DNA from: Acidobacteriota bacterium
Lineage (GTDB): Bacteria; Acidobacteriota; Vicinamibacteria; Vicinamibacterales; SCN-69-37
Length of the DNA stretch: 64,000 bases
NCBI GenBank assembly: GCA_016716905.1
Contig: JADJUS010000004.1
Span: 326,249-390,248, forward strand
Direction: 5' to 3'
The stretch's first letter is position 1, and each line of letters opens with the position of its first letter. Of the stretch, positions 7,855 to 22,507 are shown piece after piece. The position numbers were made by a program, and so were the translations under genes. The notes under the pieces are model-generated. The model saw nothing but the letters and a program-made list of their open reading frames with translations. It had not been told where the DNA came from and did no database searches.

Positions 7855-7883
7855 TTCACTACCTCCGGGGGAGAGGCAAGGCC

Positions 7884-9359
7884 ATGTCCACACACACGCT
7901 GAGTTCTGCCGCTGCCGTCGCATTGAGCGGCGCCGTTGTTGCCACGATGTTCACGATCTCGCCCGTCAGCGCGCAGGCGCCGACGGCTGAACAGGCCCTG
8001 ATCACAAAAGCTCGTGGCATCCACGAGCGTGTGATCACGCTTGATACGCATGACGACATCAACGCGAACAACTTCCGCGCGGACTGCAACTACACGATGC
8101 GCCTGACGACACAGGTCAACCTGCCGAAGATGAAAGAGGGCGGGCTGGATGTGTCGTTCATGATTGTGTATGTCGGCCAGGGCGCGCTGACCGAGGAAGG
8201 GTATGCCGGCGCGTATCGACAGGCGGTGGAGAAGTTCGACGCCGTGCATCGCCTGACGAAGGAGATTGCCCCGAACGAGATCGAACTCGCGCTGACGCCT
8301 GCGGATGTGGTGCGCATCGCGAAGAGCGGCAAGAAGGTGGCCGTCATCGGGATCGAGAACGGTTACGCGATCGGCACCGACCTCGAGCGTGTGAAGGAGT
8401 TCTGGACACGCGGCGGCCGGTACATGTCATTGGCGCACAACGGCAACAGCCAGCTGGCTGATTCCAACAGCACCGAAGCGGCGAATGGCGGCATTCATGG
8501 CGGCTTGAGTCCTCTGGGCAAGCAGGTCATTGCCGAGATGAACAAGTGGGGGATCATGGTGGACATCTCCCATCCCTCCAAGCAGGCCAACATGCAGGCG
8601 ATTGCGTTGTCGAAGGCGCCCGTGATTGCGTCGCATTCTTCGACGCGCGCGCTCGCCAATCACACCCGCAATATGGACGACGAGCTGTTGCTCGCGCTCA
8701 AGAAGAATGGCGGCGTGATGCAGACCGTGGCGTTTGCCACCTACGTGAAGGTTGATGACAAGGCGGCCGACCGGCAGGCCGCGACCACCGCACTGAACAC
8801 CGAGTTTGGTATTGCCGCGCCCGCCGGACGGGGTGCTGGTGGCGGTGGCCGTGCAGGCGGCGCCGGCGGGGGACGTGCGGGTGGCGAAGGACGCGGGCAG
8901 GGGGCCACGCCGGCGGCACCGCCTCCCTGTTCGATCGAGGATCCGAACACGGGGACCGCACCGCAGGCGGCGCGTGGGGGCGGGGCCGGCCGTGGCGGCA
9001 ATCAGGCGGCCCTTGCCGCACTGACTCCGGAACGTCGCGCGGAGTACGACACGAAGCTGGCGGCCATTCAGGCCAAGTTCCCAGCACCGGCGCGGGCGAC
9101 GGTCTCGGATTTTGTGGACCACATCGACTATGCCGTGAAGCTCATCGGCGTCGATCACGTGGGCATTTCATCGGATTTTGATGGCGGGGGCGGGGTCACT
9201 GGCTGGAACAGCGCGGCGGAGACCTTCAATGTGACCCTGGAGTTGGTCCGCCGAGGCTACACCGAGGAACAGATTGGCAAGATGTGGAGCGGCAACCTGT
9301 TGCGGGTGTGGGCCGAGGTTGAAAAGGTAGCCAAACAGCTTCAGGCTGGGTCGAAATAG
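7884..9359 (+). CDS. Membrane dipeptidase (peptidase M19, renal dipeptidase family) with Gly/Arg-rich insertion
   Basis: TLDTHDD, AHNGNS, VDISH, ASHSS and SSDFDGG motifs. ATG 7884 is preceded by GGGGGAGAGG. Signal-like N-terminus. Confidence 0.85.
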   Translation: MSTHTLSSAAAVALSGAVVATMFTISPVSAQAPTAEQALITKARGIHERVITLDTHDDINANNFRADCNYTMRLTTQVNLPKMKEGGLDVSFMIVYVGQGALTEEGYAGAYRQAVEKFDAVHRLTKEIAPNEIELALTPADVVRIAKSGKKVAVIGIENGYAIGTDLERVKEFWTRGGRYMSLAHNGNSQLADSNSTEAANGGIHGGLSPLGKQVIAEMNKWGIMVDISHPSKQANMQAIALSKAPVIASHSSTRALANHTRNMDDELLLALKKNGGVMQTVAFATYVKVDDKAADRQAATTALNTEFGIAAPAGRGAGGGGRAGGAGGGRAGGEGRGQGATPAAPPPCSIEDPNTGTAPQAARGGGAGRGGNQAALAALTPERRAEYDTKLAAIQAKFPAPARATVSDFVDHIDYAVKLIGVDHVGISSDFDGGGGVTGWNSAAETFNVTLELVRRGYTEEQIGKMWSGNLLRVWAEVEKVAKQLQAGSK

Positions 9360-9413: not shown

Positions 9414-12047
9414 TCACTCCATCCCCAGCTTCTTCCGCTTCAAAAACAGGCCTTTTCTCGAAATCCCGAGCAATTTCGCCGCATCTGACACCCGGCCGCC
9501 GGTGTGTTCGATCGCCCGGGCGACAAACGCCCTTTCGATATGGGCGATGGCCTGGTCGAGGGGCTGGTCCAGTCGCACGCTGACGACCGGTCCGGCCGGA
9601 GCAGACTGAGCGGCCGGCCGCCTCGACCTCCACCCCTGAGCAATTTCCGCCGACAGGTCATCCGCACCAAGCGTCGCGCCATCGTCGGCAAGGGCGACCA
9701 CGCGCCGCACTTCGTTGGCGAGCTCCCGGATGTTGCCAGGCCAGTCATGGAGCAGAAGTGCGGCAATGAAGTCGTCGGCGACATTCAAGCGTTGCCGGCC
9801 GGCCTCTTCGCACGCTTTGCGGACAAAGAGCGCGGCAAGGGCGGGAATCTCGTCCTTGCGTTCGCGCAGGGGCGGCAGCCAGAGCGGCGCGACCCGCAGC
9901 CGATAGAACAGATCACTTCGGAAGCGGCCCTGGCTGACCAGTGCGTCGAGCGAGGCGTTCGTGGCCGCCACGATTCGCACGCGCGTGTGGGTGGGGCGGG
10001 GTTCGCCAACGACATGAATCTCGCCCGATTCCAGGAATCGCAGCAACTTTGGCTGGATGGCCGGATCCAGATCGCCGATCTCATCAAGAAACAACGTGCC
10101 ATGTTCGGCGGCGCGAAACACCCCTCCCGATGTTTCGAAGGCGCCGGTGAACGCGCCGCGGCGATGGCCGAAGAGCTGACTCTCCACCAGGTCCTTCGGG
10201 ATCGCTGACGCATTAAAAGGCACGAATGGGCCTCGCGACCATTTGCTATGGGTGTGGATGACCCTGGCCACCACTTCTTTTCCCGTTCCCGTTTCCCCCA
10301 TGATCAAGACGGGCAGTTCGCTCGAGGCCAGCTTGATCGCGACGCGCAGCACCTCCTGCATGCGCGGAGACCAGAACACGGAGTCGCCGCCGCTTGGGAG
10401 TGAGACCTGCGGCCAGAGGAGGTCTTCGTCGAGCACGTGTGGATCCCCGGAGCGGCTGATCCCCGCTTTCGCGATTTCGACAAGATTGCGAATCAGCGAG
10501 ACGTCTTCAAGGGCAAACACGTCACGGAAACGCAGCACTGCCCGCCGGTCGATGTCCGACAGGATGATCCGGTGCGTGCCGTCCGCAGCGGTCTCCCAGG
10601 CGACGGGGCCGCCGGTGGCCTCGTTGGCGGTTGTCTCGGTGGTCACGTCGAGCCGCGTGCGCAACGCGGTGGTGGAGACCACGGCTGCGAGGCGCTGGCT
10701 CATCACGTCAATGGAATGTCCGGCGCTGAGGGCGGTGGCGATGTCGGTCAGGATGAGATTCGTACTCTCGGTGTCGGTCTGATCCCGGCGTGCGGCGGGG
10801 AGCTCGGTCCTGTCGTGGGCCGGCAAGGCCTCGCGTTCCTTGGTGACCACCCATTCCTGAAACCGATGGGAGATGGCCTGGCACGCGCGAAGGGCCCGAT
10901 CGAAGTGCCTGTTTCCGCGCGCGGCGTCGCCTCGAAGCGTGAGGCACGTGCCGGTGGCGGCTTCGACGGTGATGAGGGGATCGACGGCACCTCTGGGACA
11001 CAATCGCAGCGCGGCGACCAGCGCTTTGTCGGCATCGTCGTGTTGACCGAGGAACGCCAGGGCGCGGGCTTTTGCGCTCAGGAGCGACGCGTGCCAGACG
11101 CGCAGCTGACGGCGTTCCAGTTCCGGGTGTGCGGCGTCGACGATGGTGACGATGCCTTCCCAGTCTCGAATGTGGCTGAGGTAGAGGCACCGGGTGATCT
11201 GATGGGCGAGGTCGTACCAGGATCGCGCCGGTACGTGTTGACGTCGAATGAGTGCCTCGGCTTCGTCGAGGTGAGCGACGCACTCAGGCAAGTTGCCTTC
11301 GTATAAGGCGACGTTGGCTAGGCTGTCGGCAAGGCCTAGCTGAACGAACGACATTTCGCCGCCGACTTGACCGGCCTGATTGAGGTAGTGACGCGCCTGC
11401 TTCGCGTTGCCAAGGTACAACGTGAACAGACCAATGTTGCCTAATGCTCGGGCGCGGGGGACTTGCTTGTCGTTCTGATTCGCCTCCTCAAAAGCTCTCA
11501 CTGCGGCGCGACGGGCTTGATCCACGCTACCGACATCTAGGAGAGGTGATGCGGAAACAAGTTCGATTGAGCACCTGAGGTCGCTTGATCCCGATTCCAC
11601 TGCAAGGCGCTTAGCGATGTCTAGGTGCAGCCGCGCGTCCGAACTTGAACCGCGAAGAGCTTCGATTCGCGCAACTGCGAGATGAAGCCCTGCGAGTGAC
11701 GATGCGTCTCCGATGGCAGTAGCGAGTTGCCGAAGGGTCGCCAGGCGCGATGCGGCGTCTGCAGGAGCCTGAAATGTGGACTCCCTCACGAAGAGCGAGA
11801 ACTCTGCGCCAAACCTTGCACTGTCCGGTTGGTCCCGGAGTTCCCCACATAAGTCTGAAAGCAGCCCGAGTGCCTTAACGACATCGCCGGTGTCATACAG
11901 CGCCGTGGCGTGAACCAGCCGGCCAGGGAAATCGGTTAATCCATCGCCCTCCACTGCGGCGATAGCCTCGGAGAGACGACCGTTCCGGTACAGGGACTGG
12001 GCCTGCTCCGTCGATGGCGACACACTGGCGAATGTGCGTCCGGGCAT
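9414..12047 (-). CDS. Sigma-54-dependent transcriptional activator (bEBP) with long N-terminal TPR-like sensor region, AAA+ core and C-terminal Fis-type HTH
   Basis: GETGTGKE Walker A, GAFTGA sigma-54 contact loop, GNIRELANEV, C-terminal AAKLLGISRKGLFLKRKKLG. No receiver domain. About 420 aa helical-repeat N-terminus. Confidence 0.9.
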   Translation of the reverse strand: MPGRTFASVSPSTEQAQSLYRNGRLSEAIAAVEGDGLTDFPGRLVHATALYDTGDVVKALGLLSDLCGELRDQPDSARFGAEFSLFVRESTFQAPADAASRLATLRQLATAIGDASSLAGLHLAVARIEALRGSSSDARLHLDIAKRLAVESGSSDLRCSIELVSASPLLDVGSVDQARRAAVRAFEEANQNDKQVPRARALGNIGLFTLYLGNAKQARHYLNQAGQVGGEMSFVQLGLADSLANVALYEGNLPECVAHLDEAEALIRRQHVPARSWYDLAHQITRCLYLSHIRDWEGIVTIVDAAHPELERRQLRVWHASLLSAKARALAFLGQHDDADKALVAALRLCPRGAVDPLITVEAATGTCLTLRGDAARGNRHFDRALRACQAISHRFQEWVVTKEREALPAHDRTELPAARRDQTDTESTNLILTDIATALSAGHSIDVMSQRLAAVVSTTALRTRLDVTTETTANEATGGPVAWETAADGTHRIILSDIDRRAVLRFRDVFALEDVSLIRNLVEIAKAGISRSGDPHVLDEDLLWPQVSLPSGGDSVFWSPRMQEVLRVAIKLASSELPVLIMGETGTGKEVVARVIHTHSKWSRGPFVPFNASAIPKDLVESQLFGHRRGAFTGAFETSGGVFRAAEHGTLFLDEIGDLDPAIQPKLLRFLESGEIHVVGEPRPTHTRVRIVAATNASLDALVSQGRFRSDLFYRLRVAPLWLPPLRERKDEIPALAALFVRKACEEAGRQRLNVADDFIAALLLHDWPGNIRELANEVRRVVALADDGATLGADDLSAEIAQGWRSRRPAAQSAPAGPVVSVRLDQPLDQAIAHIERAFVARAIEHTGGRVSDAAKLLGISRKGLFLKRKKLGME

Positions 12048-12146: not shown

Positions 12147-14087
12147 CTAGTGGACCTGTCGACCGTCCCGTCGGCCGGCCAAATGATTCGCCAGCCCGTG
12201 TTCCTGCGGCAGAACTGAGCCCGGAGCGAACAGTAGCGCCGCGGATTCAAGCATCCGGCTGTGGTTTTTGTGAAATTCTTCGCCCGCGTACAGGGCAATC
12301 ACACCAACTACCTGGTCGCCATCGAAGACCGGGGTCGCCAGTGTAAAACGCAAAGGTACGGGCAGGACGCGGGCCACCGGTCCCAGGTCGAGGGCGGCGT
12401 CGGAGTTGAAGACGATCTGCCGATGGGCAAACGCCCAGCCGGAGATTCGCTCACCCACGGGAATTCTGGTTGATTCAATCGTCGACGAGCCGGAGCCGGC
12501 GCAATACACAGCCGTGAGATCGCCCTGGCCGGGCGACTGCGTATAGAAGGCCACCGCAGCGGCCGGCACCACGCGGCGCACATGACGGAAGAAGATCTCA
12601 GCCGCGGCCTCGAGCGACGGCGCCTTGGGCAACTCGCGCCGAAGTTCTCCAAACTCCCGTTCCTCGGCCGTCGCCGCGCTGATGACGTCCAGGGCCGAGT
12701 GCGCGAGGTGGCCCACCGCCGCGCCAGCGCCTGGGACGCTGCGGCCCTCCGCTTCATCGATGGCTTCAAGCCGGTCGAGGATCCGGAGGAATCCATCCAC
12801 GACCCAGGGGTCATACATGGTGCCCCTGCGGTCAATCAGGATGTGCTCAGCCTGCTGTCGGCTCATCCGCGGACGATAGGGGCGGTCGGAGGTGAGTGCG
12901 TCGTAACAGTCAACCACCGATAGAATCCTGGCGCCGAGCGGGATCTCCTGTCCCTTCAATCCATCGGGATATCCCTGGCCGTTCCAGTTCTCGTGGTGAT
13001 GCCTGACGATAGGTTCCACCGGGTACGGGAATTCGATGCTTTTGAGGATGTTTGCGCCGACGGCCGCGTGTTCCTTCATCTTCTCGAACTCGGCCGTGGT
13101 TAGCGGACCGGGTTTGTTGAGGATGTACTCGGGCACGGCCAGCTTTCCAGTGTCGTGCAGGAGGGCCGCCGCCTCGATAGCCTTGATCTGCCGATCATCG
13201 GTGACCCCGAGTGCGCGCGCGGTTTCCATCGTGTACTGCTGCACGCGCCGGATGTGACCGTGAGTGACCTGGTCCTTCGCATCAATGGCCATCGCGAACG
13301 CCGCGATCGTGGACATATGGACCTTCTCGATAGCGTCGATTTTTGCCTGCATTTCTTCGACCCTACTTGCGGAGTTCCGATACGTGAAGTAGAGCATCGT
13401 CATCAGCGGGAGGATGACGAGTATCCGTGCGAAGATGCCGTCTGGGGAAGCCAAGAGCGCTGCGATCGATGCGCCGGCGATATAAGTCAGAAATCCGTCT
13501 CGAATCCCCCACCAAGTGACTGCGAAGTCGCGCAACAGCCTTGTTCGGCTCTTTGATTGGGTCAGGGCAATCGCCATCGCGACGAGGCAGGAATTGACCA
13601 AGAAATACAAGATGGCAAAAATGGCCAAGCCGAAAACGAAGAGCGATGGATCGTCCTGTAGTTGCAGTGGAGGCGGTCCAGTAATCGAAAAAAGCGCCTT
13701 TGACGCCAGCCAGACAGAAAGTGGAGGCGCCGCCAAGTTAAACGGCGTTCGATTCCAGTCAAAACGGCCCTTCGAGTAGCAAATTGTGGCAGAAAGAACT
13801 ACCGCGTCGAGCAATACCAGCACCGTGCCCACTGCTGGGCCGTACACCAAGGTTCCCCAGATTACGAACGTCTCGGAGATTGAGTAACGGGCGCCCACGG
13901 ACTGAAACTTGACTGACAAGAACCCGCTGACCAAGGTCAGTAATGTCAACGACAGCCACTCGCTAGCGGGCGGGTCGACAATCACCTGGCGGATGTTAAT
14001 CGCCGATGTCAGGAATCCACTGACGACAACAGTCACCCAGAAGGCTCGGGCTGTCGCTGAAAAAGTTGGGCTAGTTGGCTTGGTCAT
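12147..14087 (-). CDS. Integral-membrane HD-GYP domain protein (putative c-di-GMP phosphodiesterase) with C-terminal GAF domain
   Basis: About 230 aa N-terminus with multiple hydrophobic helices. HGHIRRV...LHDTGK...HHENWNGQGYPDGL (HD-GYP). GAF-like C-terminus. Confidence 0.85.
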   Translation of the reverse strand: MTKPTSPTFSATARAFWVTVVVSGFLTSAINIRQVIVDPPASEWLSLTLLTLVSGFLSVKFQSVGARYSISETFVIWGTLVYGPAVGTVLVLLDAVVLSATICYSKGRFDWNRTPFNLAAPPLSVWLASKALFSITGPPPLQLQDDPSLFVFGLAIFAILYFLVNSCLVAMAIALTQSKSRTRLLRDFAVTWWGIRDGFLTYIAGASIAALLASPDGIFARILVILPLMTMLYFTYRNSASRVEEMQAKIDAIEKVHMSTIAAFAMAIDAKDQVTHGHIRRVQQYTMETARALGVTDDRQIKAIEAAALLHDTGKLAVPEYILNKPGPLTTAEFEKMKEHAAVGANILKSIEFPYPVEPIVRHHHENWNGQGYPDGLKGQEIPLGARILSVVDCYDALTSDRPYRPRMSRQQAEHILIDRRGTMYDPWVVDGFLRILDRLEAIDEAEGRSVPGAGAAVGHLAHSALDVISAATAEEREFGELRRELPKAPSLEAAAEIFFRHVRRVVPAAAVAFYTQSPGQGDLTAVYCAGSGSSTIESTRIPVGERISGWAFAHRQIVFNSDAALDLGPVARVLPVPLRFTLATPVFDGDQVVGVIALYAGEEFHKNHSRMLESAALLFAPGSVLPQEHGLANHLAGRRDGRQVH

Positions 14088-14143: not shown

Positions 14144-14173
14144 TCAGTCCAAGTGATGACCGTAAGAAATCAT
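14144..14173 (-). pseudogene. Mini-ORF P8, highly diverged copy (MISYGHHLD)
   Basis: ATG ATT TCT TAC GGT CAT CAC TTG GAC TGA. Same length and GAC TGA ending as P7, but the core is lost. Confidence 0.2.
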
Positions 14174-14205: not shown

Positions 14206-14235
14206 TCAGTCCCAAACAACAATTGTGCAAGTCAT
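14206..14235 (-). CDS. Mini-ORF P7, peptide MTCTIVVWD
   Basis: ATG ACT TGC ACA ATT GTT GTT TGG GAC TGA. An in-frame ATG two codons upstream is also possible. Confidence 0.35.
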   Translation of the reverse strand: MTCTIVVWD

Positions 14236-14287
14236 AGTCATCCTTCGACAGGAACGAGCAAAAGGCGAGAACGTCAAGAAGGGCAAC

Positions 14288-14317
14288 TCAGCTCCAAACG
14301 ATAATTGTGCAAATCAT
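14288..14317 (-). CDS. Mini-ORF P6, peptide MICTIIVWS
   Basis: ATG ATT TGC ACA ATT ATC GTT TGG AGC TGA. 9-codon length retained. Confidence 0.4.
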   Translation of the reverse strand: MICTIIVWS

Positions 14318-14331
14318 GGCCGTCACTGCTT

Positions 14332-14388
14332 TCAAGCGATCAGTAGCGTTAACGAACTGTCAGCCCAAACGATAGTCGTGCGAATCAT
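14332..14388 (-). pseudogene. Mini-ORF P5, degenerate copy (MIRTTIVWADSSLTLLIA)
   Basis: ATG ATT CGC ACG ACT ATC GTT TGG GCT GAC... The stop at codon 10 is lost, so it reads on to TGA at 14332. Confidence 0.3.
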
Positions 14389-14427
14389 GTCGTCCTGCTT
14401 TCAGAGCTACTAGCGTTGGCGACCGTC

Positions 14428-14457
14428 TCAACCCCAAACGATAATTGTGCGAATCAT
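14428..14457 (-). CDS. Mini-ORF P4, peptide MIRTIIVWG
   Basis: Same 30 nt as P3, preceded by AGCAGGACACC. Confidence 0.55.
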   Translation of the reverse strand: MIRTIIVWG

Positions 14458-14496
14458 GGTGTCCTGCTTTCAGAGCTACTGGCGTTGGCGACCGTC

Positions 14497-14526
14497 TCAA
14501 CCCCAAACGATAATTGTGCGAATCAT
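14497..14526 (-). CDS. Mini-ORF P3, peptide MIRTIIVWG
   Basis: ATG ATT CGC ACA ATT ATC GTT TGG GGT TGA, preceded by AACAGGACACC. Confidence 0.55.
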   Translation of the reverse strand: MIRTIIVWG

Positions 14527-14565
14527 GGTGTCCTGTTTTCAGAGCTACTGGCGTTGGCGACCGTC

Positions 14566-14595
14566 TTAACCCCAAACGATGATTGTGCGAATCAT
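14566..14595 (-). CDS. Mini-ORF P2, peptide MIRTIIVWG
   Basis: ATG ATT CGC ACA ATC ATC GTT TGG GGT TAA, preceded by GGAAGCAGGACATC. Confidence 0.55.
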   Translation of the reverse strand: MIRTIIVWG

Positions 14596-14635
14596 GATGT
14601 CCTGCTTCCTAGAATCAAGGCCTTGAAGTGAGTCA

Positions 14636-14665
14636 CTAACCCCAAACAATAATCGTGCGGTTCAT
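14636..14665 (-). CDS. Mini-ORF P1, peptide MNRTIIVWG
   Basis: ATG AAC CGC ACG ATT ATT GTT TGG GGT TAG. The ATG overlaps the protease TGA (cgATGAac). Confidence 0.55.
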   Translation of the reverse strand: MNRTIIVWG

Positions 14666-16506
14666 CGCTGGCCTCCACTGGTGACGTCGGCTTGGATTGC
14701 GTTGTCCCACACCAAGGTGTTGTCCCAAACCAAAGTGTTATCCCAGACCAAGGTGTTGTCCCAGACGAGCGTGTTGTCCCAGACCAACGTCTCGCCCCAG
14801 ACTCGGTTGTCCCAGACCAAGGTGTTATCCCAGACAAGCGTGTTGTCCCAGACCAAGGTGTTGTCCCAAACCAAGGTGTTGTCCCAGACCAAGGTGTTGT
14901 CCCAGACCAGGGTGTTGTCCCAGACCAAGGTGTTGTCCCAGACCAGCGTGTTATCCCAGACCAGGGTGTTGTCCCAAACGAGAGTCGTTCCCCACGTCGA
15001 CTGTTGGCCGAAGGCCATTCCGCCGCCGAAGGATTGTTCGCCGCCGATCGTGTTCGACGTCTGCACCTTGTCGCCGTCCTCGCGCATGGCAAACTTCACG
15101 GCCAGGGCGACGTTGATCGACCCGGCGCCTTGCGAGATGAGTCCCTCGCCCGGGATGAACTGCGCCGTGAGCTGCAGCGCCGTCTTCACCTGACGCGGAG
15201 TCAGATCCTCATTCGCCTGCAGCAACATTGCCGCCGCGCCGCTCACCACCGCCGCAGCCATGCTCGACCCCGACAGCACCAGGTAGGCCCCGCCGTTCGC
15301 GCCGGTCACACGACGCTCCGGCAGCATCTCCCACAGCAGGCTCCGCTTCGAAATGGTCGACACAATCGCATTGCCCGGCGCCACCACGTCCGGCTTCAAC
15401 AGCGTGTTCTTCGGCAGATCCTGGGGCGTGGCAGGCGCCGGCGTGCCCGGGTCCACAACGGGACCACGCGAGCTGTACGTCGCGACCTTGTCGTCACTCC
15501 GGAACACCGTGCCGTTGGTGTTCAACGCGCCCACCGTCAGCGCACCAGGCGTGAAGCCGGGCGACACAATGGCGCCGACAATCGGCACACCCGCCGCGTT
15601 CTTGCCCATGTTGCCGGCCGATGCCACCACCACAATGCCCGCGGCCACGGCGCGCTCCACCGCGAGCGCCAGCGGATCGTCGCGATACGCTTCCGATGCC
15701 GGGTGACCCAGCGAGAGGTTGATAACTCTGATGTCGAGGCGATAGCGGTATTTGATGCAGTAGTCGATCGCCTCGATCACGTCCGACACATACCCCGAAC
15801 CATCGTCGCTCAGCACTTTCATGCTGATGAGCGACACGCCCGGCGCCATGCCGATATACGGCGTGCCCTCTGCACTGCGGCTGCCGGCGCCGCTGCCCGC
15901 AATCGTGCCCGCCACGTGCGTGCCGTGGCCGTAGCCGTCGCGACCGCCTTCGCGCACGCCGCCCCGCGGGTCCGTGAAGTCGTACGACACCTGCAGGCGA
16001 TTATTCAGGTCCCCATGCGACGACACGCCGGAGTCCAGCACCGCGACGCCCACTCTCCGGCCGGTGATGCCGCCAAACGCCGAACCCGATTCGCCGCGCC
16101 ACACCTGGTCGGCGCCTGTGGCCTGCGGCGTGATGGCCATGGTGCTGTAAATCGGCCGGTCTTCCTCGATGAACTTCACGCCAGGGTCGGAAGACAGCGA
16201 GTTGACCTCGGTCGACGTCCCGTAAAACACCGCACCCGACGCCATCCGCTTGACCCGCATTTTGTGCGTCCGCTCAAGGCGGTCCACTTCGTCCTGGGGC
16301 GCCGTCACGATGACCGGAATCTGCCTGCCGTCGTCGGGCTTTGCCAGCTTCTGCGACAACTCGCGCGACATCCGGGCTCGCTGGCCGTCAGCGGCCATCG
16401 CGATGGACGGAAGGGCAAGTCCGACGACGAGAGCGAAGCCCAGGAGGGCGACCCAGACGTGTGACAGGCGATTGGGCGTGTTGTGTGCGTTCATAAAAGC
16501 ATTCAT
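14662..16506 (-). CDS. Secreted subtilisin-like serine protease (peptidase S8) with C-terminal (TLVWDN)15 repeat domain
   Basis: Signal/TM segment WVALLGFALVVGLALPSIAMA. Catalytic triad contexts VLDSGV, HGTHVAGTIAG and SGSSMAAAVVSGAAAML. 614 aa. Confidence 0.92.
   Translation of the reverse strand: MNAFMNAHNTPNRLSHVWVALLGFALVVGLALPSIAMAADGQRARMSRELSQKLAKPDDGRQIPVIVTAPQDEVDRLERTHKMRVKRMASGAVFYGTSTEVNSLSSDPGVKFIEEDRPIYSTMAITPQATGADQVWRGESGSAFGGITGRRVGVAVLDSGVSSHGDLNNRLQVSYDFTDPRGGVREGGRDGYGHGTHVAGTIAGSGAGSRSAEGTPYIGMAPGVSLISMKVLSDDGSGYVSDVIEAIDYCIKYRYRLDIRVINLSLGHPASEAYRDDPLALAVERAVAAGIVVVASAGNMGKNAAGVPIVGAIVSPGFTPGALTVGALNTNGTVFRSDDKVATYSSRGPVVDPGTPAPATPQDLPKNTLLKPDVVAPGNAIVSTISKRSLLWEMLPERRVTGANGGAYLVLSGSSMAAAVVSGAAAMLLQANEDLTPRQVKTALQLTAQFIPGEGLISQGAGSINVALAVKFAMREDGDKVQTSNTIGGEQSFGGGMAFGQQSTWGTTLVWDNTLVWDNTLVWDNTLVWDNTLVWDNTLVWDNTLVWDNTLVWDNTLVWDNTLVWDNRVWGETLVWDNTLVWDNTLVWDNTLVWDNTLVWDNAIQADVTSGGQR
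14701..14985 (-). repeat. In-frame 18-bp tandem repeat encoding TLVWDN x10, RVWGE, then TLVWDN x5
   Basis: 15 units have identical peptide sequence but at least 9 different nucleotide versions (Thr ACC/ACT/ACG, Leu TTG/CTC/CTT/CTG, Val GTG/GTT/GTC, Asp GAC/GAT). Confidence 0.95.
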
Positions 16507-16557: not shown

Positions 16558-16573
16558 CGCACATACCGTACCA
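16558..16573 (-). promoter_or_regulatory. Candidate sigma-54 (-24/-12) promoter for the S8 protease operon
   Basis: Minus strand TGGTACGGTATGTGCG versus consensus TGGCACG-N4-TTGCW. GG and GC have the correct 10-nt spacing. About 52 nt lie between the -12 element and the ATG at 16506. Confidence 0.5.
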
Positions 16574-16606: not shown

Positions 16607-16629
16607 AAAAAACCGGCCGAAAAGGCCGG
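16607..16629 (-). terminator. Rho-independent-terminator-like hairpin on the minus strand, upstream of the sigma-54 promoter
   Basis: Minus strand CCGGCC-TTTTC-GGCCGG followed by TTTTTT. No annotated minus-strand gene lies upstream of it. Confidence 0.5.
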
Positions 16630-16683: not shown

Positions 16684-16818
16684 CCAAACCGCAAAAATGT
16701 GTAATTTGTGAGTGTAAGGTCTTCAGGGGAGGGCGACCCCTAAGTCCCATAATTGCCTCATAATACGCCCCATCTGCGTTGGCCGAATGACACTTTTGGA
16801 CCCGATTTTAGGAGCGTT

Positions 16819-18549
16819 ATGACCCCCTCCCGTATCCTGCGCCTGGCCCTGCTGATAGCACTAGGTGTGGCGGTGGTCATGTTTGCCCGGCAGTGTGGTA
16901 CCCCACAATCCGGGGCCGATACGGCGCCTCAAACCGGCGGCAAATTGGTGGCCAGTTACCGCACAGAACCCACCCATTTCAACCGTCTCGTGGAGGCGCG
17001 GCCGGGGGCTCGTCTGACGGCGTTACTCACGCAGGCCACCCTGCTCCGCGTGGACCCGAACACAGCAGAGTTGGTGCCGCGCCTTGCCACAGAGTGGACC
17101 GGAACACCCGACGGATTGACGTGGACGATCACCCTTCGCAGTGGCGTACGTTTTTCCGACGGCACGGCCTTCACCGCGTCGGATGTGTTGTTCACATTCC
17201 AGGCGATCTACGACGACCGCGTGAAGAGTCCTCTGGCGCAGGACATGCGCGCCAAAGGCCAGCCCTTCCAGCTGCGCGCCATCGACGATCACCACATCGT
17301 GCTCACCTTCCCCTCCCCGTTCGGACAAGGCCTGGCCATTCTCGATAGCGTGCCTATCCTGCCTCGCCACAAACTCCAGGCAGCGTTTGATGCCGGTACG
17401 TTCCGCGACGCCTGGAGCCCGAGCTCGAATCTCTCGGAGATGGCTGGTCTGGGCCCGTTCATCCTCAAGGAGTACGTGCCTGCGCAGCACCTGCGATTTG
17501 TCAGGAACCCCAACTTCTGGCGCACGGACGCCACTGGACAGAAGCTGCCGTATCTCGACGAACTCGAGGTGCAGATTGTGCCCGAACAAAATGCCGAACT
17601 CCTGCGCCTGCAGTCGGGCACGACAGATCTCACCAACGGCGGTGCGCGCGCGGAAGACCTCGCCATGCTGCGCGATGCGGAAACCGCCGGCCGCGTCAGG
17701 CTCGTTGATGCCGGCCCCGCGATAGACGTCAGCACACTCTGGTTCAATCTCACTCCAGGTTCGAAGGCCGTCGCTGACAAACCCTGGCTGGCGCAGGAGG
17801 CATTTCGCCGTGCGATCTCACACGCGGTGAACCGGCAGGCCATCGTTGACACCGTGCATCTGGGCGCCGCGGTGGTGGTGTATGGCCCGGTGTCACCGGG
17901 CCATGGCGACTGGTTCGTGCCCGATCTTGGAGCCACGCCGTTTGACCTCGCTCGCGCGCTCACGCTCCTCACGTCGATCGGTCTGCAGGATCGCAACGGC
18001 GACGGCGTGCTTGACGACGCGTCCAATCGGCCCGTCGAGTTTTCGCTCTTCACGCAGAGTGGACACACCGAGCGCGAACGCACGAGCACACTCGTGGGCG
18101 AACAGTTGCGCCAGGTCGGCATCAAGGTGAATGTGGTCCCGATGGATCAGCGGGTCGTACAGGCGCGGTTCGGGAGTGGCGACTACGAAGCGATCTACTA
18201 CGGCGCGCAGGCCAGCTCAAAAGACCCGACCAGCAACCGTGGGTTCTGGTTAAGCAATGGCCCCATGCACTTCTGGAACCCCAATCAGCTGACGCCGGGC
18301 TCGGAGTGGGAAGGCCGCATCGACGCGCTCCTGCAGCAGGTGGCCGAGACGATGGACCCTGCCGAACGAAAGCGGCTGTTCACCGAGGCGCAGCAACTCC
18401 TCGCCGACCATGTGCCGGCGCTGTGGTTTGCGGCGCCGCATGTGTCCGTGCCGATGAGTGCGCGGGTGGGCGGAGCGAGGCCAACAGTCATCCAGCCGCC
18501 GGTGTTGTGGAACGCGGAAGAACTGTTCGTCCTGGGTCCGCGTCGGTGA
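16819..18549 (+). CDS. ABC transporter substrate-binding protein, family 5 (Opp/Dpp peptide-binding type)
   Basis: AGGAG 5 nt before ATG 16819. Signal/anchor RILRLALLIALGVAVVMFA. SBP_bac_5-like sequence (LVPRLATEWT..DGLTWTITLR.GVRFSDG). Confidence 0.85.
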   Translation: MTPSRILRLALLIALGVAVVMFARQCGTPQSGADTAPQTGGKLVASYRTEPTHFNRLVEARPGARLTALLTQATLLRVDPNTAELVPRLATEWTGTPDGLTWTITLRSGVRFSDGTAFTASDVLFTFQAIYDDRVKSPLAQDMRAKGQPFQLRAIDDHHIVLTFPSPFGQGLAILDSVPILPRHKLQAAFDAGTFRDAWSPSSNLSEMAGLGPFILKEYVPAQHLRFVRNPNFWRTDATGQKLPYLDELEVQIVPEQNAELLRLQSGTTDLTNGGARAEDLAMLRDAETAGRVRLVDAGPAIDVSTLWFNLTPGSKAVADKPWLAQEAFRRAISHAVNRQAIVDTVHLGAAVVVYGPVSPGHGDWFVPDLGATPFDLARALTLLTSIGLQDRNGDGVLDDASNRPVEFSLFTQSGHTERERTSTLVGEQLRQVGIKVNVVPMDQRVVQARFGSGDYEAIYYGAQASSKDPTSNRGFWLSNGPMHFWNPNQLTPGSEWEGRIDALLQQVAETMDPAERKRLFTEAQQLLADHVPALWFAAPHVSVPMSARVGGARPTVIQPPVLWNAEELFVLGPRR

Positions 18550-19466
18550 TCCACGCCACGGCGGCGTACGTCGCACGCCGACTGGTGGCCGCGCTCGTTC
18601 TCGTGCTCTCGGTGTCAACCGCCGCGTTCGTCCTGGCGCGTCTCGCACCCGGAGATGAAACCACGGCTGACGTGATGGAAGGTGTCGACCCGAAGGTGAC
18701 CGCGGACACGCGGGAACGGCTCGGACTCGACCGGCCGTTTCCTGTCCAGTTGGCGCACTTCACCTGGGACTTGCTGCGACTCGATCTGGGCGAATCCGCA
18801 AGGTACGATCGGCCCGTTGCGGCACTGGTCGGCGAACGCGGCGCCAACACCGCCCGCCTGGCGTTTGTCGCACTGTTGCTCGCCACACTCATCGGACTCC
18901 CTCTCGGCGTGGTGACCGGCGCCTACTCCGGGACGTGGTTTTCAAGGCTGCTGTCGATCGCCTCGATCGCCGTACTCGCCTGTCCGCCTCTGGTCGCGGT
19001 GTTGGTTCTGCTGTATGTCGCGGCGATCACAGGGTGGGTGTCGGTGGCGTCTGGAGATCTGCTGGTGCCGGCGCTCGCCCTCGGACTGCCTGTCGGCGCG
19101 GCACTCGAGCGCCTGCAATCGCAGGCCACACACGACGCCATGGCATCACCCGACCTGCTGGCGGCCGCCGCTCGCGGCATCCCGCCTCATCGGCTGGTCT
19201 GGGTGCATGCCGCACGCCAGTCGTTGCGACCCGTGCTGGGCGTCTACGGCATCGTGATCGGCAGCCTCTTCAGCGGTTCGATGGCCGTTGAGTTCGCCAC
19301 GTCATGGCCCGGACTTGGCCGTTTAATGCTCGAGGCGGTGCAGCACGGCGACGTCCGCCTGGTGGCTGGATGTGTGTTCGCCGGTGGCATCTGCCTCGCC
19401 GTCGGCAACCTTGCGGCTGATGCCCTTCGGTCACTCGCCGACCCCAGAGTGAGGGACCTGTCGTGA
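18546..19466 (+). CDS. ABC transporter permease (OppB/DppB type)
   Basis: GTG 18546 overlaps the SBP stop (GTGA). YVARRL... N-terminus typical of OppB. Multiple TM segments. Confidence 0.8.
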   Translation: MIHATAAYVARRLVAALVLVLSVSTAAFVLARLAPGDETTADVMEGVDPKVTADTRERLGLDRPFPVQLAHFTWDLLRLDLGESARYDRPVAALVGERGANTARLAFVALLLATLIGLPLGVVTGAYSGTWFSRLLSIASIAVLACPPLVAVLVLLYVAAITGWVSVASGDLLVPALALGLPVGAALERLQSQATHDAMASPDLLAAAARGIPPHRLVWVHAARQSLRPVLGVYGIVIGSLFSGSMAVEFATSWPGLGRLMLEAVQHGDVRLVAGCVFAGGICLAVGNLAADALRSLADPRVRDLS

Positions 19467-20455
19467 TTCGCCGCGCTGCAGGCGCCGTGTTGCTCGCCAT
19501 CGTGCTGATGGCGACGGCCGCGCCGTGGATTTCGTCCAACCGTCCCGATCTGCCGTTTGACGATCGCGCGTACGCGCCGCCCATGCGCGTGCATCTGCGC
19601 GATGCCGCCGGGTGGCACGCGCCGTTTGTCTACCAGCAGCGTCTCGTCCATCGCATCAACCGCACGTATGTCGACGATCACACGGCCCGCGTGCCGCTGC
19701 GATGGTTTGCGAACGGTCACCTCGTGTCGATCGATCCCGGCGCCGGCCCGTTGCTCTGGTGCGGCGCAGACGCACTGGGCCGCGATCTGTGTGCCCGACT
19801 CGTGTACGGCGCCAGGTTGTCGCTTGGTGTTGCCGCGCTTGGCGCATTCGGGGCGTTGCTGCTCGGCGCGTTGCTCGGCGCCGTGGCTGGATCCTCCGGT
19901 GGCCGCCTCGACACACTCATCACAACAGTGGCCGATTTCGTGCTGGTTCTTCCCGTCGTGTACCTCGTGATCGTGCTGCGCGCCACGCGCCCCCTCGTCA
20001 TCAGCCCGGCTGAAATGTTCTGGCTCATGACGATCCTGTTCGCGCTTGCGGCCTGGCCCGACGTCGCCCGAGGGGTGCGCGCGATCGTCGCCACCGAGCG
20101 TACGCGCGATTATGCCGCCGCCGCACGCGCCCTTGGCGCCGGGCCCTGGCGAGTGATGACCCACCTGTTACCGGCCGCCTACGGATTTCTGCGCATCGAG
20201 TTTGTCCTGCTCATCCCGGCACTTCTCGTGGCCGAGTCCACGCTTTCATTCGTTGGCTTTGGATTCGGAGGGGCGACGCCCAGCTGGGGCGGACTGCTGA
20301 AGGACGGCGAAGCGTTGACGGCCATGTACTCGGCGCCATGGCTCCTGCTGCCGGCCGCCGCACTCTTTGTCGTCGTGCTCGCGCTCCAAACGGTGGCAGG
20401 CGGAAGGCCCGGTTTCCCCGCATCGATCGTTGACACAACGGCCGCGCGCCGATAG
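19463..20455 (+). CDS. ABC transporter permease (OppC/DppC type)
   Basis: Start overlaps the previous stop. LGADALGRDLCARLVYGARLSL motif typical of OppC. TM-rich. Confidence 0.8.
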   Translation: MIRRAAGAVLLAIVLMATAAPWISSNRPDLPFDDRAYAPPMRVHLRDAAGWHAPFVYQQRLVHRINRTYVDDHTARVPLRWFANGHLVSIDPGAGPLLWCGADALGRDLCARLVYGARLSLGVAALGAFGALLLGALLGAVAGSSGGRLDTLITTVADFVLVLPVVYLVIVLRATRPLVISPAEMFWLMTILFALAAWPDVARGVRAIVATERTRDYAAAARALGAGPWRVMTHLLPAAYGFLRIEFVLLIPALLVAESTLSFVGFGFGGATPSWGGLLKDGEALTAMYSAPWLLLPAAALFVVVLALQTVAGGRPGFPASIVDTTAARR

Positions 20456-20480
20456 CCTCCGGAAGGACGATGAAGATCCG

Positions 20481-21365
20481 ATGAATCTCAGTGGCGTATT
20501 TCCCCCGGTGCCGACACCGTTTGATTCGGCGACCGGCGAATTCACACCGGCGGCCCTGACAGCCAACATCAACCGGTTGCTGCGCGCACCGGTGGCCGGC
20601 GTACTCGTGCTCGGCTCGAATGGCGAAGCCGGCCTGCTCGATGAGACTGAGGCCGATCGTGTCGTCGCTGCCGCCCGCGCAGTCGTGCCGGCCGGCCGCA
20701 CGCTGCTGGTGGGCGCCGGGCGCGAGTCCACACGCGCCACGATCGCGGCGTGCGTCCGCGCTGCGGGCAATGGCGCGGACAGCGTGCTCGTTCGTGCGCC
20801 GTCGTTTTTTAAGGCGCAGATGACGCACGAGGCGCTCGTCACGCACTACCGCGCGGTGGCCGACGCCTCACCGGTGCCCGTGATGCTCTACAACGTGCCC
20901 GGCATGGCAGGCTTCAGCCTCACGGTGCCCATGGTGCGCACGCTGGCCGCACACGCGAACGTGATCGGGATCAAGGAAACCAGCAACGACCTGGAACGCC
21001 TCGGCCAGTTCGCGGCGATCACCGACAGCGGTTTCGACGTGCTGGTGGGCTGGGCGCCGGTGGCACACAGCGCGGCCGTGGCGGGTGCGCGCGGTGCCAT
21101 CATTGCCGTGGCCAACGTGCTGCCTGACGTGTGCACGCAACTGTGGTCCCTGGCCACGGCGGGCCGGCACGCCGAGGCACTTGTGCTGCAACGCCGTATC
21201 ACCACCATCGCACAGCTGGTGTCGAGCGTGCATGGTGTGGCCGGTCTCAAGTGCGCGCTCGATCTGGTGGGCGCGTATGGCGGGCCCGTGCGCGCCCCGC
21301 TCCTGCCGGTGACCGCGGCCGTGGCCGAGGACATCCGCTCGGCGCTTGCTCCATGGCAAGCGTGA
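20481..21365 (+). CDS. DapA/DHDPS-family aldolase, HOGA1-like (putative 4-hydroxy-2-oxoglutarate aldolase)
   Basis: GVFPPVPTPF, LGSNGEA (GSNGE rather than the GTTGE of DapA proper), and Schiff-base Lys context IGIKETS. Confidence 0.7.
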   Translation: MNLSGVFPPVPTPFDSATGEFTPAALTANINRLLRAPVAGVLVLGSNGEAGLLDETEADRVVAAARAVVPAGRTLLVGAGRESTRATIAACVRAAGNGADSVLVRAPSFFKAQMTHEALVTHYRAVADASPVPVMLYNVPGMAGFSLTVPMVRTLAAHANVIGIKETSNDLERLGQFAAITDSGFDVLVGWAPVAHSAAVAGARGAIIAVANVLPDVCTQLWSLATAGRHAEALVLQRRITTIAQLVSSVHGVAGLKCALDLVGAYGGPVRAPLLPVTAAVAEDIRSALAPWQA

Positions 21366-21387
21366 GACACACGCGAAGAATGTGACC

Positions 21388-22503
21388 ATGCCAAAATCCG
21401 CTCTGCCCACCACTCCACGGCTCCTCATGGGACCCGGTCCATCTCCCGTGTCGGATCGCGTGATGCAGGCCATGGCCGCACCTCCGCGATCACACCTCGA
21501 CCCGGAGTTTGTTCTCCTGCTCGACGATGTCCGCGCCCGGCTGACGACGCTGTTTCAGGCGCCGGCGGATCACTTCTCATTCGCACTCTCGGGCACCGGC
21601 ACCACGGGCATGGATGCCGCCGCCGCGAATCTGCTTGAGCCCGGCATGATGGTGCTCTGCGTCGTCAACGGCTATTTCGGCGATCGGCTGGCGCAGGTGT
21701 GCGCGCTCCATGGCGCATTTGTCGAGCGGCTCCAGGGCGAGTGGGGACAGGCGATTGATCCCGCGCAGGTTGAGCGGGCGATGAGCGACGGGCGCTTCGA
21801 CGTGGTGGCCGTCGTCCATGGGGAAACATCCACTGGTGTGCTCAATCCGGTGGGGGACATCGCCGCGATCGCGCAACAACACGATGCCCTGCTGATCGTT
21901 GATGCCGTGACGTCGCTCGGGACGGTCCCGGTGGATGTGACGTCGTGGAACGCGGACGCGTGTTATTCCTGTTCGCAGAAAGGGATTGGCGCCCCGTCGG
22001 GCCTGGCGCCGATCACGTTCTCGGCGCGCGCGCGCCAGGGGCGCGCAGACACCACGCCGTTTTCACTCGATGTTCAGAAGCTTGAGGACTTCTGGGTCCG
22101 GCGCAAGTATCACCACACGATTTCCGCGCCGATGATTTATGCCCTGCACGCCGCCCTCGCCGAGGCTGCTGAAGAGGGCCTTGAGGCGCGCTGGAAGCGG
22201 CATGCGGACGCGCACGCCGCGCTGATCTCGGGACTGGACGCCATCGGCCTTCGCCTGCTTCCGGCTCCCGCCCATCGCCTCCCAAGCCTGAACACCGTTT
22301 GTGTGCCCGACGGCGTGGACGCGGCCGAGGTGAAGGACCGCATGCTGACCAAGCACCAGATCGAAATTGGTGCCGGACTCGGGCCGCTCGCGGGCAAGGT
22401 CTGGCGAATCGGGTTGATGGGAAGCGGCGCCACCATCCACAATGTGGAGAAGGTGGTGACGGCGCTCGCAAAGTCGCTTGGCCGCACACCTCCCCGGAGG
22501 TAG
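21388..22503 (+). CDS. Class V aminotransferase (alanine-glyoxylate / serine-pyruvate aminotransferase type)
   Basis: LLMGPGPSPV N-terminus. PLP-lysine context CSQKGIGAPSGLAPITFS. Confidence 0.8.
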   Translation: MPKSALPTTPRLLMGPGPSPVSDRVMQAMAAPPRSHLDPEFVLLLDDVRARLTTLFQAPADHFSFALSGTGTTGMDAAAANLLEPGMMVLCVVNGYFGDRLAQVCALHGAFVERLQGEWGQAIDPAQVERAMSDGRFDVVAVVHGETSTGVLNPVGDIAAIAQQHDALLIVDAVTSLGTVPVDVTSWNADACYSCSQKGIGAPSGLAPITFSARARQGRADTTPFSLDVQKLEDFWVRRKYHHTISAPMIYALHAALAEAAEEGLEARWKRHADAHAALISGLDAIGLRLLPAPAHRLPSLNTVCVPDGVDAAEVKDRMLTKHQIEIGAGLGPLAGKVWRIGLMGSGATIHNVEKVVTALAKSLGRTPPRR

Positions 22504-22507
22504 GCGC

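Follow-up and report, generated by a model that had tools for sequence, protein, structure and literature searches.

Introduction

The closest described relatives of the element studied here, a tail of 15 perfect TLVWDN hexapeptides that closes a subtilisin-family (S8) protease, are the hexapeptide repeats (Hexapep, PF00132) of left-handed beta-helix (LbH) proteins and the repeats of YdcK-type proteins (PF18836; PDB 2F9C). The tail is encoded in a 64,000-nucleotide stretch of DNA from a member of the Acidobacteriota (contig JADJUS010000004.1, positions 326,249 to 390,248), hereafter the window, in which a series of nine-codon open reading frames (mini-ORFs) follows the protease gene. The tail shares with these repeats the period of six residues. 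In the register V-W-D-N-T-L, it would also have their aliphatic position i and their small residue (Ser, Thr or Ala) at i+4. Unlike them, it then carries Trp at i+1, where Gly, Ala, Glu or Asp is canonical; its units are perfectly identical, no fold is predicted for it by AlphaFold2 (AF2), and its carrier is an exported protease and not an acyltransferase or carbonic anhydrase. Ice-nucleation and antifreeze proteins also possess highly uniform solenoid repeats. Their near-perfect repeat identity within a protein is matched by the window array, and the functional reason may be a regular ladder surface. The protease context is different, and the match to LbR_Ice_bind (E 2.6e-4) lies below the cut-off and concerns a single homologue (P0011).

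The RRNPP(A) systems of the Bacillota (Phr/Rap, NprX/NprR) combine short peptides, extracellular processing of the subtilisin type, uptake by Opp, and a cytoplasmic receptor with tetratricopeptide repeats (TPR). By gene content, the window contains an exported S8 protease with the array, a binding protein of the SBP_bac_5 family, and two permeases, which would serve processing and uptake. The place of an RRNPP receptor is taken by a candidate of another kind, a sigma-54 activator with TPR similarity of a generic level. Further differences are that the phylum is diderm, that the output would pass through a sigma-54 AAA+ activator and an HD-GYP protein, that the protease itself carries the putative precursor as a fusion, and that the mini-genes are leaderless. 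Tandemly duplicated Phr propeptides, with several pheromone copies per precursor, have been described (PMC11343458). The mini-peptides of the ...TIIVWG type resemble short hydrophobic pheromones, which are peptides of 7–9 residues rich in Ile and Val, and share with them the presence of a dedicated OppA-type protein encoded nearby. An example of such a pheromone is DIIIIVGG, and the enterococcal sex pheromones use the OppA-like protein PrgZ. These pheromones arise by cleavage of lipoprotein signal peptides or of precursors longer than 20 residues, whereas the mini-ORFs have 7–10 codons and no exporter gene nearby. Export of the streptococcal SHP/Rgg pheromones proceeds via PptAB (PMC7564271).

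The presence of many identical cores in one polypeptide is a feature that the window array shares with multi-core and enzyme-fused precursors. These include cyanobactin PatE with PatA/PatG, Kex2-processed fungal repeats (ustiloxin), borosins, and plant BURP-domain cyclases; enzyme fusion is found in borosins and BURP proteins, and an S8-family protease in the cyanobactin and Kex2 systems. Unlike in these, no tailoring enzyme is conserved at the window locus, and no recognition or dibasic sites separate the hexads. Functional peptides made from genes of fewer than 10 codons are known as biarylitides, whose mini-genes (pentapeptide bytA) need an adjacent P450. No P450 gene adjoins the mini-genes of the window, which, in addition, form tandem arrays and have their translation coupled to that of the protease gene. 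Neither the tail nor the operon is described in the full-text literature searched or in a survey from 2008 of the domain architectures of subtilases (PMC2605481). The array and the mini-genes suggest an undescribed peptide-signalling (or anchoring) device. The reading we tentatively favour is that the unit is a discrete peptide module, which the circuit of its operon senses after its release or presentation outside the cell.

The S8 protease and its repeat tail

The C-terminus of the window protease reads STWGT-(TLVWDN)10-RVWGE-(TLVWDN)5-AIQADVTSGGQR. The 15 perfect units comprise residues 508–567 and 573–602 (window positions 14985..14806 and 14790..14701), and Tandem Repeats Finder (TRF) reports a period of 18 with 15.5 copies. 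An earlier note, made from the sequence of the window alone, had placed 15 such units at the end of an S8 protease, at 14701–14985; the coordinates are exact, and the units are confirmed by ORF translation. The same note had counted at least 9 different 18-mers behind the units. The actual number is 12, with the codon sets as claimed: ACC, ACT and ACG for Thr; TTG, CTG, CTC and CTT for Leu; GTC, GTT and GTG for Val; and GAC and GAT for Asp. The codons for Asn (AAC) and Trp (TGG) are invariant.

The 22 nucleotide differences from the consensus unit represent 8 distinct variants of site and base, and they are synonymous without exception. Since just 10 of the 54 possible single-base changes of the unit are synonymous, silent-only variation has a probability of P ~1.4e-6 for 8 independent events, each variant being counted once.

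Judged by its motifs, the protease that carries the tail is catalytically intact. The Peptidase_S8 profile (PF00082) matches residues 149–448 with 167.3 bits (E 6e-49; cut-off 21.8). The catalytic triad and the oxyanion residue are present, namely D158 (DSG), H194 (HGTH), N299 (AGN), and S415 (GSSM), and all four columns are invariant in a 25-sequence alignment. An AF2 model of the full protein, computed with this alignment, gives the catalytic domain a pLDDT of mostly 70–97 and places a helix at residues 11–38. From a reading of its sequence, the N-terminus is a probable Sec signal peptide.

The sole Rfam match to the array, IRES_Bag1 at 14674–14935 on the forward strand, was dismissed as an artefact of the 18-nucleotide repeat; its 28.9 bits are below the gathering score of 37.

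Tails of homologous proteases

A search of 5.8 billion proteins returned ~4000 homologues of the window protease, named mostly as Vicinamibacterales or Acidobacteriota. For comparison, 80 genome loci and 7 metagenome loci were used; a single-protein query of the metagenomes returned 6 loci. Repeat tails proved to be a family-wide trait, present in hundreds of S8 proteases of Acidobacteriota. Most of the best 120 of the ~4000 homologues end in repeats with the core [DNS]-[TS]-[ILM]-[IV]-W-[GDS]-x, and six is the modal period in most genome loci. Trp-type arrays are restricted to S8 proteins among the 150 matches listed from a search of 1.84 billion proteins: of the five, four belong to S8 proteins and one to a short fragment.

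The units of a given protein are identical, with silent differences in their DNA, in ~40 arrays, such as the TLIWDN array of L003 (14 units, 12 DNA versions), the TMVWGS array of L005 (17 units, 13 versions), and the STVWGS array of L079 (14 units, 12 versions). Arrays composed of hexads only contain almost no non-synonymous variants, and non-synonymous divergence (dN) is essentially zero across the arrays with diverse silent sites. Free amino-acid drift within the units of homologues, which the earlier note had named as a sign of missing constraint, was not seen in these ~40 arrays.

Five loci (L003, L004, L085, L087 and L088) share one architecture: STWGQ, 2–3 units, a loop ending in WGE, 5 units, xHIWGD, 3 units, SHFWGQ, and 3 units. 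The unit is TLIWDN, TMIWDN or TLVWDN throughout each of these arrays, and therefore all units must have changed together between species. This architecture is conserved among species 58–62% identical. Closer relatives (L083 and L084, 86–89% identical) have 9+4 and 8+at least 1 units, respectively, with runs of DNA-identical copies; in L083, the edge units have diverged to TMIWDN and TMVWDN. Accordingly, slippage also changes the copy number among close relatives. The claim of the earlier note that selection, and not slippage alone, maintains the peptide holds on both counts, as silent-only variation recurs in ~40 independent arrays and slippage is ongoing in close relatives. The unit peptide is held by selection, and both selection and slippage act on the array.

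That the array is nothing but a recent slippage product, or a low-complexity tail with no function of its own, is hardly tenable. Such an origin would agree with the DNA-identical runs and the differing copy numbers in L083 and L084, and with the disruption of the L084 array by an insertion sequence (IS) element. It is contradicted already by the data on selection and architecture: the differences are silent only, both in the window (P ~1e-6) and in dozens of lineages, the arrangement of units is kept across species 58–62% identical, and tails terminate most of the best 120 homologues.

The IS element in L084, the relative with 89% identity, is represented by an IS3-like transposase ORF (MKKRFTEAQIVDFLREA...) at ~6720–7130, inserted into the end of the array. 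The insertion truncates the tail and removes most of the mini-ORFs, of which remnants are left, among them MIRTIIV, closed by a stop codon (TGG to TGA). In L010 (8001–9700), the S8 frame stops early and a (SIVWTD)10 array continues in another frame; the frameshift is either real or an error of long-read assembly.

Tails without Trp, such as GVLVGD, GILLAD, GVITGD, GTVISD and GILYGD, were observed on S8 paralogues, mostly from metagenome-assembled genomes of Blastocatellia and Pyrinomonadaceae (L022, L026, L029, L038, L063–L065, L068, L070, L073–L075 and L077). The residue before the conserved SPG motif is His in most of these paralogues and Val, Ile, Thr, Ser or Ala in the Trp clade. The residue matching subtilisin G166, aligned by eye, is His in the clade with Trp-less tails and Val, Ile, Thr, Ser or Ala in the Trp-tail clade. 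Covariation of the S1 pocket with the tail type was considered and set aside because the distribution of this residue tracks phylogeny and, hence, is not independent evidence. Tandem S8 paralogues (two or three), each with a hexapeptide tail of its own, occur in L026, L036, L046, L063, L069, L074 and L075. One of these loci, L069, is assigned to the Armatimonadota, and L031, a locus with a single S8 gene, to the Gemmatimonadales; the tail is, therefore, not confined to Acidobacteriota.

Sequence class and predicted fold of the tail

The main rival to a released or presented peptide module is a purely structural one. The tail would be a Trp/Asp/Asn-ladder solenoid (LbH or a related beta-solenoid or hairpin stack) that is never released, and that anchors the protease to the envelope, a membrane interface or a polymer, or oligomerises it. 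The mini-peptides would then act independently or merely descend from tail DNA. We regard this as possible, if somewhat unlikely. Comparison with sequence databases speaks in its favour. Compared by phmmer with 1.84 billion representatives, the tail had 1197 matches, and the best of those outside the S8 family are YdcK-type/Hexapep solenoid proteins with the common hexad [VI]-[YW]-[GD]-N-[AT]-x. All 29 weak matches in the PDB are LbH proteins: the best is the LbH domain of eIF2B-epsilon (E 5e-5), and the others include gamma-carbonic anhydrases, LpxA/D, and WxcM. The Trp-less tail of the L029 paralogue (GVLVGD) passes the Pfam Hexapep model with 37.3 bits against a gathering score of 27. The window tail itself has the tandem six-residue period of PF00132 (15 units of 6 residues). 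Set against the signature [LIV]-[GAED]-X2-[STAV]-X, the register V-W-D-N-T-L agrees at i (Val) and at i+4 (Thr) and has Trp at i+1; the HMMER alignment to eIF2B-epsilon places Trp at position i.

Curated models were not reached by the window tail. It scores 15.6 bits with Hexapep PF00132 (gathering score 27) and 19.2 bits with LbH_EIF2B (gathering score 54), and no family of Pfam or NCBIfam matches it above threshold. Among other tails, that of L007 obtains 14.6 bits with Pfam Hexapep, below the same 27, and those of L005, L009, L023 and L079 do not match. No match of the window tail to the YdcK beta-solenoid repeat (PF18836) was found, and the NCBIfam model YdcK_fam gives 17.2 bits with a cut-off of 350; the likeness to YdcK consists in phmmer matches to individual YdcK-type proteins only. 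Matches of homologues to Lysostaphin_N, Multi_ubiq, DUF963 and LbR_Ice_bind are below threshold and were discarded as repeat noise. By sequence, then, the class of the array is that of hexapeptide (left-handed beta-helix) repeats. It probably descends from a repeat of the hexapeptide/LbH type, yet fails the membership threshold. The statement of the earlier note that the tail is not a named domain was half right: the array is below every curated threshold but at the edge of PF00132.

The spacing of the repeats bears on the structural reading in two ways. Among tails of the best 120 homologues, the modal distance between successive Trp residues of the h-h-W motif is even (6, 8, 10, 12 or 14) in 59 proteins and odd in 13, a bias with a binomial probability of 4e-8 if kinship is ignored. 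The modal periods of homologues also include 8, 10, 12, 14 and 15 (range to 16), and in 40 of 72 proteins the spacing takes at least four values; for this reason, the tails do not fit a simple LbH. In particular, periods of 8, 10 and 14–16 and the irregular spacing do not suit a coil of 18 residues, and the five-residue interrupter breaks the register in the window.

The structure prediction that the earlier note had proposed for the tail (residues ~490–614) yielded no fold, either in the full protein or for the tail alone. In the full-length AF2 model with the 25-sequence alignment, residues 495–614 have a pLDDT of 24–34, and the tail alone has a pLDDT of 36 and no secondary structure; both runs were made without a positive control. 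The LbH idea of the earlier note is supported by the PDB matches, the YdcK/Hexapep matches and the L029 tail, but not by the AF2 models, the sub-threshold scores and the periods of 8–16. For a solenoid, it is also unusual that all six positions are invariant within a protein yet variable between species, and the amplified mini-genes of one or two units, translationally coupled to the protease, are left unexplained. More in line with a solenoid are a hydrophobic composition unlike that of a disordered region, the fact that tails are far commoner than the mini-gene operon, and the divergence of edge units in L083, as in ordinary concerted evolution of a repeat.

Another explanation, which we consider improbable, is a sacrificial C-terminal pro-region: an auto-inhibitor, export helper or timing device that the protease would trim after export, the fragments having no signalling role. 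C-terminal pro-regions are removed after export in some bacterial subtilases, such as aqualysin I. The occurrence of the arrays examined with S8 proteins, the lack of a fold in the AF2 models, and the free variation of copy number among close relatives would all suit such a region. A disposable region should, however, tolerate conservative changes, and dN is essentially zero despite diverse silent sites. The unit-like mini-genes and the synteny with sensor, regulator and Opp genes would also remain without explanation.

Mini-genes downstream of the protease gene

The earlier note had suggested a functional link of the array to the short peptides (TIIVWG) encoded next to the protease. These mini-ORFs (MNRTIIVWG and others) are real, and the link is supported by conserved synteny and by co-occurrence. 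The window contains six intact mini-ORFs of nine codons and two decayed copies (Table 1). Most of the window mini-ORFs are located within 69-bp tandem units in which AGGA precedes each ATG. The ATGA overlap between the stop codon of the protease gene and the first mini-ORF is also present in L083 and L089. In the clade of the window, the mini-genes are leaderless, encode 7–10 residues, and are of the ...IIVWG/S type. Mini-genes (IIVWS, IIVWG, IIWGE/D, IIVWTD) follow the S8 stop codon directly in 15 of the 22 loci with an HD-GYP gene next, as opposed to 2 of the 60 others (Fisher p = 2e-9), and the rest of the loci contains them at a background rate of 0.009 per kb.

Between species, the mini-genes show silent codon changes, Shine–Dalgarno sites are present, and the flanking DNA is unalignable. 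The RNA of the 69-nucleotide unit is less stable than shuffled controls (z +1.4 to +1.6), and a structured-RNA reading of the 69-bp units, which fold worse than shuffled sequences, was rejected. The silent codon variation, the unalignable flanks and the poor folding together indicate, at the level of sequence, that the mini-ORFs are coding.

A second route of amplification was found in L089 (5319–5827). Here, a 77-bp tandem is present in five copies, each a 23-residue ORF with two units, MTTQTIIVWG-AKP-MATQLIIVWG, and 5 nucleotides separate each mini-gene stop codon from the next ATG. This amplification is independent of the 69-bp route of the window. Since each ORF of L089 holds two units, proteolytic release would be needed to obtain single ones.

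The mini-peptide resembles a tail unit in which Ser or Thr is replaced by a hydrophobic residue, with Arg or Lys in front. The rare ending W-T-D is common to the unit (SIVWTD) and the mini-peptide (RIIVWTD) in L010 and L012, and in L012 the codons differ. The mini-ORF of L010, MRIIVWTD, has 15 nucleotides identical with array units. Strict covariation of mini-peptide and unit was tried and rejected: it is limited to the endings TD and GD in L010, L012 and L061, and none occurs in the subclade of the window.

Stable hairpins without a T-run were observed between the mini-ORF stop codon and the HD-GYP gene in L088 (534–600, z = -3.8), L004 (9905–9960) and L001 (10022–10118). Their role may lie in RNA processing or stabilisation, or in partial termination.

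Operon, predicted promoter and putative peptide-uptake genes

The gene order in the Vicinamibacterales-type clade of the window is conserved: protease, mini-genes, membrane HD-GYP phosphodiesterase, and TPR-sigma-54 activator. The Opp-type binding protein and the two permeases, on the opposite strand, are part of this synteny. The HD-GYP protein is a membrane sensor with a GAF domain, and a MASE9 domain was recorded on its L001 orthologue. MASE9 has been proposed by its defining authors to bind a ligand within the membrane (bioRxiv 10.1101/2021.11.05.467447). TPR proteins are what the profile of the activator's N-terminal domain matches, and among natural proteins in the PDB the peptide receptors NprR (E 7e-4) and RapJ (E 0.018) score best, over ~135 residues.

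A loose GG-N10-GC pattern, compared across loci, revealed a sigma-54-like element upstream of the protease gene. It appears as GGTACGGTAcnTGC (GGTAC type) 44–67 nucleotides upstream in L001, L003, L004, L005 and L008, and at -125 in L089. GGCA-type variants are located at -48 to -59 in L002, L010 and L012 and ~300 nucleotides upstream in L007, L009 and L061. The background of the loose pattern is 0.17 per kb per strand. A scan with the strict sigma-54 consensus detected nothing near the protease gene, and the loose pattern had no match upstream of nine other S8 loci checked that have an HD-GYP gene next. Two of these nine (L042 and L056), as well as L014, carry a mini-ORF with no match to the loose pattern. 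By this comparison, the element is conserved in core loci only. An element with -24 GG and -12 GC together with an adjacent activator gene is what characterises a sigma-54 operon; both are present, and the promoter is predicted. The divergent Opp-type binding protein is encoded at the same position in 11 of the 13 core loci and in L083–L089.

In the 247-nucleotide intergenic region between the protease gene and the Opp-type gene, a GC-rich, terminator-like hairpin with a T-run (16613–16629, reverse strand) lies just upstream of the sigma-54-like element, where it may act as an insulator or attenuator.

The neighbourhood also bears on the proposal that units and mini-peptides are cores of peptides that are made by the ribosome and modified after translation (RiPPs), carrying Trp cross-links of the W-x-N triceptide type or a ComX-like Trp prenylation, with the S8 enzyme as maturation protease. 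The locus does resemble multi-core RiPP loci in that its cores are identical and repeated, its candidate precursor genes are very small, and an S8 protease is encoded next to them; moreover, W-D-N fits the aromatic-x-Asn cyclophane motif. Even so, this reading is very improbable. No gene for a radical-SAM enzyme, P450, prenyltransferase, YcaO or other tailoring enzyme is conserved nearby (window, L001, L002 and L089; distal enzymes may exist), the PatA/PatG protease model TIGR03895 gives 48 bits with a cut-off of 421, and the conserved neighbours are signalling and peptide-uptake genes.

A possible peptide circuit

If the unit is a discrete peptide module, as we tentatively favour, the operon could work as follows. 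Exported together with the protease, the array would be the multi-copy precursor of a short Trp peptide or its presenter, perhaps beta-structured before cleavage. Units would be freed by proteolysis, by the S8 protease itself or by others; the Opp-like system would import them and/or the MASE9 sensor would detect them in the membrane. They would then be sensed by the activator's TPR domain, and the activator would fire the sigma-54 promoter before the protease gene, so that the loop is a positive one. Ligand of the same class would come from the mini-genes, which have no export signals and whose number would set the dosage.

In favour of this reading are the selection for identical units, the link of the Trp-type arrays to S8 proteins, the coding and independently amplified mini-genes behind the protease gene, and the ending W-T-D common to unit and mini-peptide. 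The sigma-54-like element, the likeness of the TPR profile to peptide receptors, the syntenic Opp-type protein, the ligand binding proposed for MASE9, and the lack of a stable AF2 fold point the same way.

Several observations weigh against this reading. The tail carries the hexapeptide/LbH signature, and one Trp-less tail, that of L029, exceeds the Pfam threshold. The even spacing suggests a beta-structure constraint over free linkers. Half of the tail consists of Trp, Leu and Val, unlike a soluble disordered precursor. Similar tails occur on many S8 paralogues that have no mini-genes, HD-GYP gene or sigma-54 element. Within the subclade of the window, L003, L004 and L085, the mini-peptide IIVWS/G is constant while the tail unit varies. 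The match of the activator to NprR is modest, and TPR similarity is generic. In the window, no ABC ATPase gene and no exporter gene adjoins the locus according to Pfam. A weaker point is that Val or Ile at the position of subtilisin G166 is unfavourable for Trp at P1. Finally, cleavage, mini-peptide export, uptake, binding and feedback are putative steps.

The complete circuit, in which a signal is encoded twice, is rather unlikely to hold in all its parts. Encoding would be by a hexapeptide polyprotein on the liberating protease and by coupled leaderless mini-genes of 7–10 codons; return would be of the Opp type, and read-out by the TPR-sigma-54 activator and/or the MASE9-HD-GYP protein, parts not seen together before. 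Such a circuit of Acidobacteria, for signalling between cells or for self-reporting, would couple peptide sensing to cyclic di-GMP and sigma-54 transcription, and species-specific unit variants such as TLVWDN, TLIWDN, TMIWDN and TMVWGS would be pherotypes.

To our knowledge, peptide-pheromone-like systems are not known in Acidobacteriota, and almost no regulatory biology has been worked out in this phylum. If the units are released and sensed, the operon would represent a peptide-pheromone-like system in a diderm soil phylum. It would also have a new architecture, with an enzyme carrying its own multi-copy signal and with mini-genes that rank among the smallest known to encode protein. A folded solenoid, in contrast, would add a new variant of the hexapeptide repeat, with a Trp ladder and an exported protease as its carrier, and would be a clean natural case of unit identity at the protein level with drifting silent sites. 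Under either reading, the family is large (~4000 homologues) and unannotated.

Feature coordinates and flanking genes

Table 1. Positions of the protease gene, its repeat tail, the mini-ORFs and adjoining features in the window
Feature	Position	Strand	Basis or remark
Sigma-54 enhancer-binding protein with 550-aa N-terminal TPR sensor domain	9414..12047	-	Sigma54_activat E 2e-60; HTH_8
Membrane sensor (MASE9-like) + HD-GYP + GAF cyclic di-GMP phosphodiesterase	12147..14087	-	HD_5 E 8.5e-40; GAF_2 E 7e-10
Decayed mini-ORF copy MISYGHHLD	14144..14173	-	
Mini-ORF 7, MTCTIVVWD	14206..14235	-	
69-bp tandem repeat, 4.6 copies (Shine–Dalgarno site + mini-ORF + spacer)	14287..14607	-	TRF
Mini-ORF 6, MICTIIVWS	14288..14317	-	
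Decayed mini-ORF copy MIRTTIVWADSSLTLLIA, stop codon lost	14332..14388	-	
Mini-ORF 4, MIRTIIVWG	14428..14457	-	ORF list
Mini-ORF 3, MIRTIIVWG	14497..14526	-	ORF list
Mini-ORF 2, MIRTIIVWG	14566..14595	-	AGGA 6–9 nt upstream of ATG
Mini-ORF 1, MNRTIIVWG	14636..14665	-	ATG overlaps protease stop (ATGA)
S8 (subtilisin-family) protease gene, 614 aa	14662..16506	-	ORF; Pfam Peptidase_S8
C-terminal AIQADVTSGGQR + stop codon	14662..14700	-	TGA overlaps ATG of mini-ORF 1 (ATGA)
TLVWDN units 11–15	14701..14790	-	ORF translation
Five-residue interrupter RVWGE	14791..14805	-	Kept as RVWG[ED] in L083 and L084 (86–89% identical)
TLVWDN units 1–10	14806..14985	-	ORF translation
Lead-in pseudo-unit STWGT	14986..15000	-	Kept as STWG[TQ] in L003, L004 and L083–L088
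Catalytic domain, residues 149–448	15163..16062	-	Pfam; motif positions
Probable Sec signal peptide, residues 1–38, ...SIAMA/AD	16393..16506	-	Hydrophobic stretch 17–36, then A-x-A
Sigma-54-type -24/-12 element TGGTACGGTATGTGCG (predicted)	16558..16573	-	52–67 nt upstream of protease ATG
Opp/Dpp-type peptide-binding protein (SBP_bac_5), divergent	16753..18549	+	Pfam E 2e-76
Two ABC permease genes (BPD_transp_1)	18306..20455	+	First start codon uncertain

The flanks of the locus on the forward strand (7737–9359 and 20367–23935) encode an M19 membrane dipeptidase, a DHDPS-family enzyme, a class-V aminotransferase, and an M48 peptidase. Of these, the genes for M19 and M48 are found again in related loci.

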